A DNA stretch of 32,000 nt from Saccharolobus solfataricus (GCF_900079115.1 NZ_LT549890.1:660001-692000), one strand, 5' to 3'; counted from the first letter of the stretch, positions 6,268 to 27,396 are shown. Numbers and translations: made by a program. The notes: generated by a model from the letters alone, not told the origin.

Positions 6268-6524
<257 letters not shown>

Positions 6525-7104: not shown

Positions 7105-7199
7105 AATTTTTTATTGATAAACTGGGGAGTTAACTAATCTTCTTATTCAAATAATAATTCTATAGGGATACTAACTTAGTATAAATAAAAACAGAAAGA

Positions 7200-7207
7200 T
7201 TTTCAAA
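7200..7207 (+). promoter_or_regulatory. TATA-like box of C/D sRNA copy A
   Basis: TTTTCAAA is centred about 27 nt upstream of the first G of the sRNA stem. The equivalent TTTTTAAA sits at the same distance in copy B. Confidence 0.4.
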
Positions 7208-7230
7208 TCCCAAAAAATAAGAACTAAATT

Positions 7231-7302
7231 GGGGAGCGGGGAAATGATGAGGGTTCCAGAGCTGAAGCGTGATGAATGGTTGACACGCTGACCCCGCTCC
7301 CC
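7231..7302 (+). ncRNA. C/D box sRNA (2'-O-methylation guide type), copy A, closed by an 11-bp stem
   Basis: GGGGAGCGGGG-AA-ATGATGA(C)-GGGTTCCAGAG-CTGA(D')-AGC-GTGATGA(C')-ATGGTTGACACG-CTGA(D)-CCCCGCTCCCC. 44/72 G+C in AT-rich surroundings. No ORF. Confidence 0.75.
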
Positions 7303-7349
7303 TAATTTCCTTTGAGTTAGTGACAATAAAGTTTTCTCAATTCACTATA

Positions 7350-7556
7350 TTATCTTCCTTTTCTATTTCTAGAAGAAGCCCTGCTTACTATGTCGTCCGG
7401 GACTTTCCTTATTTTACCCACAACATACCTGTATAGAGTACTCCTACCTATACCTAACTTCTGTGCAACATAACTCAGCTTGTACTTTTCTACTACCTTT
7501 TTGAGTACCCGAATTTTTTGCTCATTATCGAGTCTATCTAAGTCAATCTTTACCAT
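7350..7556 (-). CDS. small helix-turn-helix protein (mobile-element remnant)
   Basis: The ORF track gives 7350..7616. I prefer the ATG at 7556 (MVKIDLDRL..., 68 aa) because a TATA-like TTTAATATT lies about 22 nt upstream, giving a leaderless transcript. HTH signature SYVAQKLGIGRSTLYRYV. Confidence 0.5.
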   Translation of the reverse strand: MVKIDLDRLDNEQKIRVLKKVVEKYKLSYVAQKLGIGRSTLYRYVVGKIRKVPDDIVSRASSRNRKGR

Positions 7557-7669
7557 AATCTCATATACCAATATTAAATGGTGAGAGTGTTGCAAAAATA
7601 TCCTTTGCTGTTGCAAATCTCTTATCTCTGTAGAGAACGTAATTTTCTTTCAAATTATCATAAAATTAG

Positions 7670-7759
7670 TGCCGCGGCCGGGATTTGAACCCGGGTCACG
7701 GGCTCGAGAGGCCCGCATTCTTTCGGTGCCTGCGCTTGACCGGGCTAAACCACCGCGGC
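7670..7759 (-). tRNA. tRNA-Glu(CTC) with an intron of about 17 nt at a non-canonical position (between D-arm and anticodon stem)
   Basis: Reverse complement GCCGCGG-TG-GTTT-AGCCCGGTC-AAGC-G-[CAGGCACCGAAAGAATG]-CGGGC-CTCTCGA-GCCCG-TGAC-CCGGGTTCAAATCCCGG-CCGCGGC-A. The 17 extra nt precede the anticodon stem. Confidence 0.7.
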
Positions 7760-16704: not shown

Positions 16705-17223
16705 TTATATTTTATCTAAGAGAGTAGCCCGAAACTTTTCTTGATTCTTTCTCAAAAGCGATATCCCAGCAAATTCCTTTAGTACATTAACGTGAAGTAC
16801 AACCTCAGGATCTTTAAAATCAACATTAATTAAACCCTTCAGCCCTATTCCTACTCCCATTTCAATTTCTCTACAATTTACGTCAATTCCCCTATTATAA
16901 CAGCGAACGTAAAATGTTTTGAGATCTTTTGTCTTATTTTTTATAAAATTTATTACATTAACAACAATTTCCTTTTCATTGGTGGAATTTATAATCAACT
17001 GAAATGGATATACTTTTTCAGCACAAGACGGAGGAGAAGCAAAAAGTAAACCATAAACCACTAATGAATCTAAATTTGAGTAAACAATAGCTACGTTTTG
17101 CACATATTCTATAACTCTAGCATCAATATCCTTTATAAGTATCCTATTCAAAATCTCATTTATACACTTTCGACCTTTACCAGGCTTTGTAGTTACAAGA
17201 GCCTTTGGGTTCTGCCACATCAA
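16705..17223 (-). CDS. THUMP-domain protein (putative RNA binding)
   Basis: 172 aa. The C-terminal pattern FYVRCYNRG....REIEMGVG......VDFKDPEVVLHVNVL...AGISLL is typical of THUMP domains. Confidence 0.6.
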   Translation of the reverse strand: MMWQNPKALVTTKPGKGRKCINEILNRILIKDIDARVIEYVQNVAIVYSNLDSLVVYGLLFASPPSCAEKVYPFQLIINSTNEKEIVVNVINFIKNKTKDLKTFYVRCYNRGIDVNCREIEMGVGIGLKGLINVDFKDPEVVLHVNVLKEFAGISLLRKNQEKFRATLLDKI

Positions 17224-24400: not shown

Positions 24401-24687
24401 CTGTTTTTAAACTCAATTAAATTTCATCTATAAGATTAAATGTTTTAGAATATATTGAATGAATACTAATTCTCAGAAATAATATCTAAATATCACTATA
24501 TTTCAAGAATTAGTAAATAATTATCTCTAGTTGGTTAATTGCTGAAATATTTTACTTTTTTAGACTATAGCTGGAGTTTGCAAAAGCTTATAGCCCGTAA
24601 TTAACTCCCCAGTTAAACCAATGTTGTAAGTCTTATCACTATAAATAAAACTAAAATTCTTCATTAGCTTTGAAGCAACGGACGTGA

Positions 24688-25527
<840 letters not shown>

Positions 25528-25572
25528 AATGAGAAGAAAAAATTAATAACGGTTAAAGATAAGAGTAAATTA

Positions 25573-25644
25573 GGGGAAAGGGGTCAGCTCCCAAGCCGTT
25601 CATCCTGGCTCAGTTCTGGCGTGGCTCATCATTCCCCTTTCCCC
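25573..25644 (-). ncRNA. C/D box sRNA, copy B (paralogue of 7231-7302 with different guides)
   Basis: Minus strand: GGGGAAAGGGG-A-ATGATGA(C)-GCCACGCCAGAA-CTGA(D')-GCC-AGGATGA(C', one deviation)-ACGGCTTGGGAG-CTGA(D)-CCCCTTTCCCC. 44/72 G+C. Confidence 0.7.
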
Positions 25645-25667
25645 GTTTTCTAGTTTTGCAAAATAGG

Positions 25668-25675
25668 TTTAAAAA
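25668..25675 (-). promoter_or_regulatory. TATA-like box of C/D sRNA copy B
   Basis: TTTTTAAA on the minus strand, centred about 27 nt upstream of the stem, within a block conserved with copy A. Confidence 0.4.
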
Positions 25676-25733
25676 CTTTTCTGTTTTTATTTTTGTCCTT
25701 TTAATATCTCATTAGGAATAATATTTTAAAAGG

Positions 25734-26123
25734 TTATTTAACTTCCTTCTTCTCTACAACTATTATTAAGAAACTCATAGGGGGTAATTTAGAAGAGACG
25801 TAACAAGACACTTCTAAAGGTTCCTTAGCTCTAATTACGCTCTCTTTTATGAATTTTAAATGAAGATCAGACGACACTAATACTAAATACTTAGTACTAT
25901 CAGGAATAAAAAATCTAAAGAACTTTTCATAACTAGAAATTATTCTAGCGTTAATGAAATAAATAAAATTAATTTGCTCCCGATTTATAACCCTTAATAA
26001 ATCCTCATCAACATAAGTTTCTAGTTCTTTAGGGCTTAACGATTTCATATAGTATATATCATGTGTGAAGACATTTATTAAGTTTATTATAAATTCTTTA
26101 ATGGTGTAGTTCCATTGCTGCAA
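25734..26123 (-). CDS. hypothetical protein
   Basis: 129-aa ORF with no recognisable motif. A start at the internal ATG 26048 (MKSLSPKEL) would remove the overlap with the upstream gene. Confidence 0.4.
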   Translation of the reverse strand: MQQWNYTIKEFIINLINVFTHDIYYMKSLSPKELETYVDEDLLRVINREQINFIYFINARIISSYEKFFRFFIPDSTKYLVLVSSDLHLKFIKESVIRAKEPLEVSCYVSSKLPPMSFLIIVVEKKEVK

Positions 26124-26583
26124 ATATCATTATAATTCCTAGTACTATTGCCAATCCGTTAATTAATGAGCTATCATACGAGAAGTGGGCTAATGCTACC
26201 CTCTTCCACTTTCCGTTTCTCTTAACGTAAATCCCATTCTCAGTGAAGACGTCTAATAGCATATGTGATGGTCCAACTAAAATCCCATCAATTAACGCTG
26301 TCAAAATTTTTGTGTTTAACATACCGTATGCTAAACCTAACACTATTATTACTGGCATTGAGGAAATTAAACCCCAAAAAACACTTCTTGGCAGGGTATG
26401 AGTTAGAGGAGTCCTAACCGGAATTTTCCCATACCTTGTACTTATCTCTTTATGCCCCAACCTATCGATAAGGGTATTTCCTAAGACACTTATAATAGCA
26501 GATATTATCAAAGAAAAACCGAAAAAAGAACTAGCCAAAGTCAACAACCCAATAGAAAACACAAAATGAGTTTTTAACTTCAT
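26098..26583 (-). CDS. membrane-bound metal-dependent hydrolase (DUF457/YdjM-like)
   Basis: The ORF track gives 26098..26706. I prefer the ATG at 26583 (MKLKTHFVFS..., 161 aa) because a TTTATAA box lies about 33 nt upstream inside the longer ORF. The H-rich pattern THF..., DRLGHKE, THTLP fits DUF457. Confidence 0.6.
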   Translation of the reverse strand: MKLKTHFVFSIGLLTLASSFFGFSLIISAIISVLGNTLIDRLGHKEISTRYGKIPVRTPLTHTLPRSVFWGLISSMPVIIVLGLAYGMLNTKILTALIDGILVGPSHMLLDVFTENGIYVKRNGKWKRVALAHFSYDSSLINGLAIVLGIIMIFAAMELHH

Positions 26584-27396
26584 ACAAGTCTTTTTATTAA
26601 ATAATATTAGCTTATAAATAGAGAGGTATTCGGTGCTGTTCAACCCTATGCTCATTACTAGTAATCCCGTGATGATGCTGCTGGCCCTGCTAACTGACTT
26701 CCTCATGCCCTTTACAGTAGACCCAAAATCACCTCCTTAAGCGTTTCTACTAGATGGAAAAATTCTCTGGATCAATATCCTATTTGAAGATTATTTTGGT
26801 GAGGGATACTGAGTGTTATCATTTTGCTCTCTCACGCGTAATGCACCTTCTCCCTCACCTTAAACTTTTTCTCCAAATCTTTCATATTGTTACAAATTTC
26901 ATTACCCTTCATTAATGCTATATTATTATATCAGGGTTATTTTTTACAATATGATTTTGTGTCTATCGTGAATGGTGAGGCTTTCATTTTTCTGTAAGGT
27001 AAGCAAGCATTGCTCCACTTATAGTAATACTATTAGTAAAATAATATTTTTATCGTTAAGTTTCATATGTGACTGTATTACCTAAGGGATATATAAACCA
27101 ACGTATACTAATTCAATTTTACCTTTCTAATAAATAATATATGTTATATCTTTCTTAGAAAATCAAATGCCAAATTATTTATCATTCTCTTATTTCCAGC
27201 ATTTAATTGCATATTCCTTCATTTATATTGCATATTTATTATAAAATATATAACATAATACGTCATGAACGGTTATAAATATGATTTTGAGAATTAATTA
27301 TTACAAAATTTGATATAATATTACTAACATATTTTTATTAACAGTTAATTTATGATCTGTACTTTCAAATCCAATTATAAAATTTAAAGATTTATA

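Follow-up and report, generated by a model that had tools for sequence, protein, structure and literature searches.

Within a 32,000-nucleotide (nt) stretch of Saccharolobus solfataricus DNA (GCF_900079115.1 NZ_LT549890.1:660001-692000; called the window here and numbered from its first letter) lie two small RNA (sRNA) genes of the box C/D type, each forming part of a longer module: module A on the plus strand at about 7146-7308, and module B on the minus strand at about 25567-25729. The two modules follow one plan, in which a promoter made of a B recognition element (BRE) and a TATA box is followed after 23 nt by an 11-base-pair (bp) G/C clamp that surrounds a dual-guide C/D box RNA, and then by UAAUUU. 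Comparison with plasmid, phage and metagenome sequences indicates that A and B are very probably chromosomal copies of a mobile guide-RNA cassette belonging to Sulfolobales conjugative plasmids of the pNOB8/pARN family.

The RNA of module A (plus strand, 7231-7302; identified by its boxes, Rfam sR3, the family model R1, folding, and circular RNA mapping) reads GGGGAGCGGGG-AA-AUGAUGA-11 nt-CUGA-AGC-GUGAUGA-12 nt-CUGA-CCCCGCUCCCC, and its 3' flank UAAUUU occupies 7303-7308; TAATYT stands behind the 3' arm in most copies of the cassette and is likely an oligo-T termination signal. Its 5' parts are the clamp arm (7231-7241), C box (7244-7250), D' guide (7251-7261) and D' box (7262-7265), followed on the 3' side by the C' box (7269-7275), D guide (7276-7287), D box (7288-7291) and second clamp arm (7292-7302). 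The RNA of module B (minus strand, 25644-25573; identified by boxes, model R1, folding and circular RNA mapping, and spanning 25567-25644 when its flank is included) reads GGGGAAAGGGG-A-AUGAUGA-12 nt-CUGA-GCC-AGGAUGA-12 nt-CUGA-CCCCUUUCCCC and then UAAUUU, with the corresponding parts at 25634-25644 (clamp arm), 25626-25632 (C box), 25614-25625 (D' guide), 25610-25613 (D' box), 25600-25606 (C' box), 25588-25599 (D guide), 25584-25587 (D box), 25573-25583 (clamp arm) and 25567-25572 (UAAUUU). In both RNAs the terminal C and D boxes (AUGAUGA...CUGA) lie inside the 11-bp stems, and internal D' and C' boxes are present: the D' box is CUGA in each, the guides measure 11+12 nt in A and 12+12 nt in B, and the C' boxes are GUGAUGA and AGGAUGA, respectively. 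Both fold with the clamp formed, at z = -4.1 (A) and -4.0 (B) against shuffled sequences.

Upstream of the clamps, TATA-like octamers are found at 7200-7207 in A (TTTTCAAA) and at 25668-25675 on the minus strand in B (TTTTTAAA), both 23 nt ahead of the clamp. The promoter alignment also reveals a BRE-like purine-rich block in A (7185-7198, plus strand; ATAAAAACAGAAAG) that is identical at 13 of 14 positions to the complement of 25677-25690, the BRE-like block of B. In A the promoter together with the tail of a DUF1286 gene, a plasmid-backbone remnant, extends over 7146-7207 (plus strand) and is matched by blastn to pARN3, pSOG1/2, pHVE14 and pRT2; in B the promoter and the conserved plasmid sequence ATTATTCCTAATGAGAT extend over 25668-25729 (minus strand). 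The A and B regions align by blastn over 191 nt at 68.6% identity (E=3e-10), and the two longest inverted repeats of the entire window are the ones that join them, I1 (7146-7207/25668-25729) and I2 (7256-7311/25564-25619); the extents of I1 and I2 place the homology at about 165 nt. The likeness of A and B is not due to chance. A prior reading of the window from sequence alone (the sequence-only reading) had described them as paralogous promoter-plus-sRNA modules alignable over 133 nt in opposite orientation, with all boxes, the upstream block, the TATA-like octamer at equal distance and the string CCAGA in common. Each of these elements was verified, and the description is supported, for a homologous stretch somewhat longer than claimed. 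CCAGA is all that the two D' guides share. The clamps differ by two neighbouring pairs swapped on both arms (G-C and C-G in A, A-U and A-U in B), so that the double compensatory change proposed in that reading is confirmed and pairing is preserved in both copies.

The RNAs themselves are not new. The window is of S. solfataricus P2: ten of its proteins, SSO0783 and SSO0784 among them, match P2 proteins exactly, and three exact-protein look-ups gave no record. Circular RNAs of S. solfataricus P2 have been published with coordinates (Danan et al., 2012; PMC3326292), among them those of the C/D box RNAs Sso-sR8 and Sso-sR4; the 51-nt Sso-sR8 circle falls at window positions 7229-7279, on A, and the 44-nt Sso-sR4 circle, which was validated by reverse-transcription PCR, at 25589-25632, on B, both placements being coordinate arithmetic from a single anchor and uncertain by about 12 nt. 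The anchor is the 24-nt intron (424-447) of a transfer RNA gene, tRNA-Ser(CGA), at 377-484 on the minus strand (Rfam, 47 bits; overlooked by ARAGORN), which agrees with the published circular intron 'tRNA-Ser/SSOt33' and, on the P2 genome, places the window at about 640,555-672,554. Since A and B map to Sso-sR8 and Sso-sR4, they are known, expressed sRNAs, and are the published Sso-sR8 and Sso-sR4. The family model R1 scores A at 74.9 bits and B at 78 bits and finds just these two copies in the window. In Rfam, A scores 41.5 bits with sR3 (RF01133), whose cut-off is 41; membership was not accepted, as the score lies at the threshold and is driven by the boxes, with a gap in the D' guide and agreement at 7/12 D-guide positions. 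The best Rfam score of B is 41.5 bits with snoPyro_CD, under the cut-off of 45 (sR3, 18 bits), and none of the plasmid copies described below reaches the cut-off of any Rfam family.

Both modules were searched by blastn against the plasmids of PLSDB and against 50,697 phage records that include fuselloviruses. The meaningful PLSDB matches are exclusively Sulfolobales plasmids, and at least ten Sulfolobales conjugative plasmids carry the cassette (pNOB8, pSOG1/2, pARN3, pARN4, pHVE14, pYN01, pKEF9, pRT2 and pB12E5). The unit found on plasmids consists of ...ATTATTCCTAATGAGAT..AAAAATAAAAACAGAAA-NN-TTTTTAAAT, about 21 nt, a clamp arm, the C/D RNA, the other clamp arm, and TAATYT; the unit with the ATTATTCCTAATGAGAT promoter was read in pNOB8, pSOG1/2, pARN3, pARN4, pHVE14, pYN01, pRT2 and pB12E5. 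Three copies are present on pB12E5, the second of which is the closest relative of A and has nearly the same guides (GGGUUCCAGCG / ACGGCUAACACG), and 84% of a 201-nt query of module B aligns to pB12E5 and pNOB8. Copies outside plasmid records were found in a 27.8-kb hot-spring metagenome contig and in a plasmid integrated in an S. islandicus chromosome. The usual site on plasmids is behind a DUF1286 gene, with the promoter overlapping the 3' end of that gene and the plasmid recombination motif downstream of the sRNA; DUF1286 itself is matched by tblastn in 11 Sulfolobales plasmids. The internal boxes are degenerate in several plasmid copies, with UUGA for D' and AUGAUA for C'. A second type of sRNA has a shorter clamp, GCGGGG/CCCCGC, and occurs in pKEF9 (L108, 26453-26522, minus strand), pB12E5 (L107, 35832-35902, plus strand) and pRT2 (L005, 3084-3155, plus strand); in pKEF9 and pB12E5 it stands upstream of plrA, and in pB12E5 its promoter differs.

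The phage records gave chance A/T-rich matches only, and with no real match among them fuselloviruses are rejected as carriers. The proposal that the cassette is cargo of an integrative virus or plasmid family therefore stands in its plasmid half, on at least ten conjugative plasmids, and falls in its viral half, with none among 50,697 phage records; the evidence supports the cassette being accessory cargo of integrative pNOB8/pARN-type conjugative plasmids. A combined promoter and box pattern produced 74 chance matches in bacteria and none in Sulfolobales when run on the genome contig collection, so that no synteny information comes from that collection; on viral contigs it gave one match, a false one, and on metagenome contigs one true match and two false ones. 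Two single observations concern further candidate copies. In pRT2 (L005, 2932-3005, plus strand) a weak extra match to R1 (24.6 bits, E=0.0017, 36% G+C) immediately precedes the sRNA of this plasmid, overlaps the DUF1286 gene at its end and is probably spurious. On the chromosome-like metagenome contig Ga0496372_000053 (L105, 3077-3144), host-like genes surround a decayed cassette, now a pseudogene: it still has an intact promoter, both clamp arms and its flanks, but no C box (GGGGGATGAAGC) and an altered D box (CCGA/TTGA).

Conservation across the copies is unevenly distributed. Among 11 non-redundant copies the mean pairwise identity is 73% in the promoter (26 nt), 94% in the C box, 100% in the D box and 82% in the D' box, compared to 35-37% in the guides and 44% in the 5' clamp arm; the conserved scaffold with variable guides noted for A and B is thus found throughout the family. 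The clamps are G/C-rich and 8-13 bp long, and differing clamps (GGGGAGCGGGG, GGGGAAAGGGG, GGGAUGAGGGG, GAGGGACGGG, ACGGGGGC and others) each pair with their own partner. When this was quantified for 12 distinct copies by an alignment-free calculation, cognate arms paired at a mean of -19.8 kcal/mol versus -14.3 kcal/mol for non-cognate arms, a difference reached in 0/20000 permutations (p<5e-5), and the cognate arm was the best partner in 7/12 copies. In a model-based alignment of the clamps, still imperfect in register, 8/11 clamp pairs have substitutions in both arms, and covariation scores 0.324 versus 0.193 +/- 0.029 in shuffles (0/500), and shifting the partner by 1-3 columns lowers clamp pairing from 74% to 60% or less. 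Selection for pairing, which had been suggested from A and B, is supported for the closing stem by the cognate-arm result together with the two-sided changes. Archaeal C/D particles are stabilised by terminal stems, which many archaeal sRNAs do not have (PMC5062973).

The position behind the promoter does not always hold an sRNA. In pBEU9E1 the cassette promoter drives an open reading frame (ORF) for a RelE-like toxin instead, and S. islandicus L.S.2.15, S. acidocaldarius and S. shibatae have chromosomal elements with the same promoter ahead of a RelE-like ORF. The RelE-like ORF stretches (L087, 3040-3413; L094, 3534-3895; L096, 3555-3959; L098, 3519-3904) have no adjacent antitoxin gene. Sequences with the sRNA and with the RelE-like ORF diverge about 10 nt past the TATA box; because the promoter is common and the switch comes just after TATA, sRNA and toxin are alternative cargo of one slot. 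The slot is deleted in pTC and pAH1, and pMGB1 has no cassette copy. DUF4898, encoded next to module B, was considered as RelE-like cargo and rejected.

The surroundings of A and B retain parts of plasmids. At the left edge of module A is a copy of the plasmid recombination motif (7118-7133, minus strand; TTAACTCCCCAGTTTA, one mismatch to TAAACTCCCCAGTTTA), and a second copy lies at 24601-24616 on the plus strand (TTAACTCCCCAGTTAA, two mismatches); the motif is said to have a role in plasmid recombination and to lie in a plasmid region rich in repeats. Convergent with sRNA A is a truncated integrase ORF (7350-7616, minus strand), of which residues M21-S81 (coding from 7556 to about 7374) correspond to residues 1-61 of the pARN4 integrase. 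Identity is 71.6% by tblastn to the pSOG1/2 and pARN4 integrases (BLASTP 70%, E=2e-28) and 41% to that of pNOB8, these plasmid integrases being helix-turn-helix plus PF00589 proteins; tblastn of the ORF against the phage records found no match. The label of SSV1-like intN that some annotators have given to this ORF was accordingly rejected. Next to the integrase fragment is a tRNA-Glu(CUC) gene (7669-7759, minus strand; Rfam alignment) with a D-arm insertion of ~23 nt at a non-canonical intron position. ARAGORN calls the same interval tRNA-Ser(cga), a call overruled by the Rfam-aligned anticodon loop CUCUCGA, which identifies the gene as tRNA-Glu(CUC). This tRNA-Glu gene is likely the integration target of the plasmid whose integrase fragment adjoins it, and tRNA-Glu is reportedly the attachment (att) target of pSOG-type plasmids.

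At module B a plasmid-type integrase beside a tRNA gene, which A has as a 61-residue fragment, is not present. The ORF convergent with sRNA B is instead the C-terminal part of an SSV-type integrase (intC; 24688-25527, plus strand; Pfam PF16795, 2.8e-61), named an SSV1 integrase homolog in the source annotation. Its frame opens with an antisense att-like 3' fragment of a tRNA-Arg(UCG)-like gene (24711-24752, encoding PPGFEPG), and the tRNA-like fragment at 24688-24752 is 81% complementary to tRNA-Val at 6301-6342 (inverted repeat I4). Neither intN nor a complete tRNA-Arg matching intC was found within the window; the partner end of this element is missing or lies elsewhere. Of the statement that both copies sit beside SSV-type integrase fragments, the part on B holds and the part on A does not, its fragment being of plasmid type. 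In its own orientation B has DUF1286 (SSO0784; 26098-26706, minus strand; Pfam), the gene that precedes the cassette on plasmids, and DUF4898 (SSO0783; 25734-26123, minus strand; Pfam) upstream, and the ATTATTCCTAATGAGAT block is kept. Backbone sequences thus remain at both sites, with DUF1286 and the cassette promoter at B and the recombination motif at 7118-7133 and 24601-24616. No TraG/TrbE-like ATPases, plrA or partition genes are among the window ORFs adjoining A or B; these surroundings are plasmid remnants, not intact plasmids. The 17 kb separating A from B contains ordinary host genes, and an inversion between A and B, worked out by hand, fails to restore the normal layout of an integrated element. 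Taken locus by locus, the annotations show both copies to lie in decayed mosaics of integrated elements beside tRNA genes.

Guide targets were sought in the 16S and 23S ribosomal RNA (rRNA) of S. acidocaldarius, taken from the supplement of Dennis et al. (2015) and used as a proxy for the rRNA of S. solfataricus. Matches had to form an uninterrupted helix that includes position 5 from the box, and p values were obtained from shuffled guides. The D' guide of pKEF9 (GGAGCGACGGG) is complementary at 11/11 positions to 16S CCCGUCGCUCC (p about 0.001), presumably E. coli 16S 1402-1412 at the top of helix 44. The D' guide common to pNOB8, pSOG1, pB12E5 and the S. islandicus copy pairs with 16S CUCGUGUUGUG by 10 Watson-Crick pairs and one G-U pair (p about 0.006), at what we take to be about E. 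coli 16S 1069-1079. GUUACGA occurs in the D guide of pKEF9, of pRT2 and of the third copy on pB12E5, and matches UCGUAAC over 7-8 bp only; UCGUAAC is the strand opposite the pKEF9 D' target in the same helix. For the window copies, the D guide of A pairs with the 530 loop (10 pairs including 2 G-U, p=0.09) and that of B with 16S 1178-1188 (11 pairs including 2 G-U, p=0.04), and the D' guides of A and B are orphans against the proxy rRNA. The suggestion that such an element could redirect the host methylation machinery accordingly gains from the two plasmid guides with significant 16S matches and is left uncertain as regards the targets of A and B themselves.

Other targets were also evaluated. 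Against the five tRNAs of the window, the D guide of B pairs with tRNA-Glu over 10 positions (p=0.02 alone), with a predicted site at C36 and not C34; the match is lost upon correction for 23 guides and was rejected. After masking of the sRNA genes, complementarity of the guides to their own plasmid or to the window did not convincingly exceed that of shuffles (1/11 tests nominally significant). A 12-pair match (10 Watson-Crick plus 2 G-U; equalled by 0/100 shuffles) was noted between pB12E5 17153-17164 (plus strand) and the D guide of the A-like pB12E5 sRNA; it is antisense to an annotated coding sequence and was thus treated as chance. The tables of Dennis et al. (2015), in which S. solfataricus is not included, contain none of the guide strings.

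A plasmid origin of the window copies is argued by the backbone flanks that they keep, namely the DUF1286 tail, the promoter and the recombination motif, and further by the truncated plasmid-type integrase next to tRNA-Glu at A, by DUF1286 at B, and by the A-like sRNA of pB12E5. Each cassette is a complete transcription unit. Transcription would begin at the foot of the clamp and stop at the T-run; the clamp may keep the C/D kink-turn closed at about 80 degrees C, and protect or define the ends of the RNA. Host L7Ae, Nop5 and fibrillarin would assemble on the cassette RNA, and the guides would specify for 2'-O-methylation the nucleotide that is paired at position 5 from the D' or D box. For at least some copies the target may be host rRNA, with 16S near E. 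coli 1402-1412 and 1069-1079 as candidates. Plasmids would have brought cassettes into the P2 chromosome at least twice, by integrase-mediated insertion near tRNA genes, and the sRNA genes would have outlasted the decay of the remaining plasmid, to be catalogued later as host sRNA.

Several points weigh against this reading. Transcription, binding of small ribonucleoprotein (sRNP) proteins and methylation guiding by the plasmid copies are predictions, and most guides score no better than shuffled guides on S. acidocaldarius rRNA. The identity of A and B with Sso-sR8 and Sso-sR4 stands on one-anchor coordinate arithmetic, and the reported circles (51 and 44 nt) leave out part of the clamp, so that the clamp may be confined to the precursor and trimmed in maturation. 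A is convergent with its integrase fragment, unlike the plasmid layout, and at least one rearrangement must therefore be assumed. As to where the cassette ultimately arose, a plasmid and a host origin are both possible.

The most serious alternative is that A and B are host C/D paralogues arising from chromosomal duplication, that plasmids captured host genes, and that the neighbouring integrase fragments are coincidental. The host sRNAs to which both RNAs map have indeed long been known, the score of A attains the sR3 cut-off of Rfam, the copy in Sulfolobus sp. A20 stands among host genes, and the S. acidocaldarius host RNA Sac-sR5 contains a D'-linker-C' string, GACCTATGAAGA, that is also present in some plasmid copies. 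However, homology to plasmids runs past the RNA into the DUF1286 tail, promoter, downstream block and recombination motif, A adjoins a truncated plasmid integrase and B adjoins DUF1286, and the sR3 match, box-driven and at threshold, agrees at 7/12 D-guide positions; this alternative thus appears improbable. The shared 12-nt string is an observation in its own right: Sac-sR5 (PMC4644070 supplement) and the Sulfolobus sp. A20 copy have GACCTATGAAGA, and pARN4 has the variant GACCTATGAAAG (the copies compared with Sac-sR5 being L101, 3084-3160, and L088, 1834-1910). Some core sRNAs of the host may, as this string hints, be of common ancestry with the plasmid family.

A more far-reaching proposal can be formulated, in which Sulfolobales conjugative plasmids use their own fast-diversifying C/D guides to rewrite 2'-O-methylation of the recipient's ribosomes, for host manipulation or for competition between plasmids, and in which the sharing of a slot with RelE is no coincidence. 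The pKEF9 guides point at both strands atop 16S helix 44, the decoding centre; the proposal itself is a speculation with only a small chance of being right. If true, a guide RNA and a ribosome-dependent RelE-type toxin would be interchangeable means of acting on, or protecting, the translating ribosome.

The cassette RNA might alternatively be a regulatory or antisense RNA, an insulator or a terminator for its neighbours (the convergent integrase, small ORFs), and not a methylation guide. The sRNA is convergent with a downstream ORF at both window loci and in several plasmids, and a strong hairpin plus a T-run looks terminator-like; against this, the self-complementarity of guides with masked genes did not exceed shuffles, its single nominal hit in 11 being antisense to a coding sequence, and the canonical C/D architecture would be left unexplained, making this alternative very unlikely. 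That the inverted repeat is a DNA-level element (a replication-origin, recombination or protein-binding site with incidental boxes) is exceedingly improbable: the cassette does lie near the recombination motif in a reportedly repeat-rich plasmid region, and DNA hairpins likewise yield covarying arms, but four boxes are kept at 11-12-nt spacings with the sequence between them free to vary, a dedicated promoter stands at fixed distance, RNA has been detected from both window loci, the slot may hold a protein gene, which fits a cargo site and not an essential cis site, and some plasmids have no cassette.

The cassette RNA resembles the archaeal box C/D sRNAs (Sulfolobus sR, snoPyro_CD) in its RUGAUGA/CUGA motifs, D'/C' boxes, 11-12-nt guides, core of about 50 nt and terminal stem, and is unlike them in having its own conserved promoter, an unusually long, covarying clamp of 8-13 bp, and a home on conjugative plasmids. 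In Pyrobaculum, C/D elements that are likened to miniature inverted-repeat transposable elements and transposed or duplicated sRNA genes (Lui et al., 2018; PMC6009581) are similar in being multi-copy, with a conserved scaffold, diverged or orphan guides, and a location in unstable regions. Unlike the cassette, the Pyrobaculum elements are chromosomal repeats in one genome, without promoter cassette or plasmid carrier, whereas the carrier of the cassette has been identified and different genera share copies of it. In eukaryotes, v-snoRNA1 of Epstein-Barr virus and retroposed mammalian snoRNAs are reported cases of a mobile or parasitic genome with a C/D guide that uses host core proteins. The former is an intron-processed product of a single eukaryotic gene, with no diversifying family and no conjugative plasmid. 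Integrated pNOB8-type plasmids and SSV-type elements have been described at tRNA genes in Sulfolobales chromosomes (PMC3119797); the window loci share with them integrase fragments by tRNA genes, an att-like tRNA fragment fused to intC and a degenerate DUF1286, and differ in being short remnants only, the surviving part being both times the sRNA cassette. A 2021 review considered the mobile features of C/D sRNA genes as still to be discovered (PMC7994747). No plasmid-borne archaeal C/D sRNAs, cassette or alternation with a RelE-like gene are described in the searchable literature, which does not cover older subscription plasmid papers and in which the guide sequences likewise gave no match; the RNAs and the RNA class are known, and the plasmid-borne cassette is apparently undescribed.

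C/D guides have been treated as host housekeeping genes, and how the dozens present per archaeal genome are gained, lost and diversified is an open question. The cassette provides a concrete vehicle, a promoter-plus-clamp unit exchanged among Saccharolobus, Sulfolobus and related genera on conjugative plasmids, and because such plasmids carry it, RNA-modification guides can travel between archaeal cells. This raises the question of what a plasmid gains from modifying the host ribosome; in addition, the unit could serve in Sulfolobales as a natural, portable cassette for expressing designer guides. A cassette left in the chromosome after decay of the plasmid is indistinguishable from a host sRNA, and the horizontal spread of rRNA-modification guides becomes directly testable.

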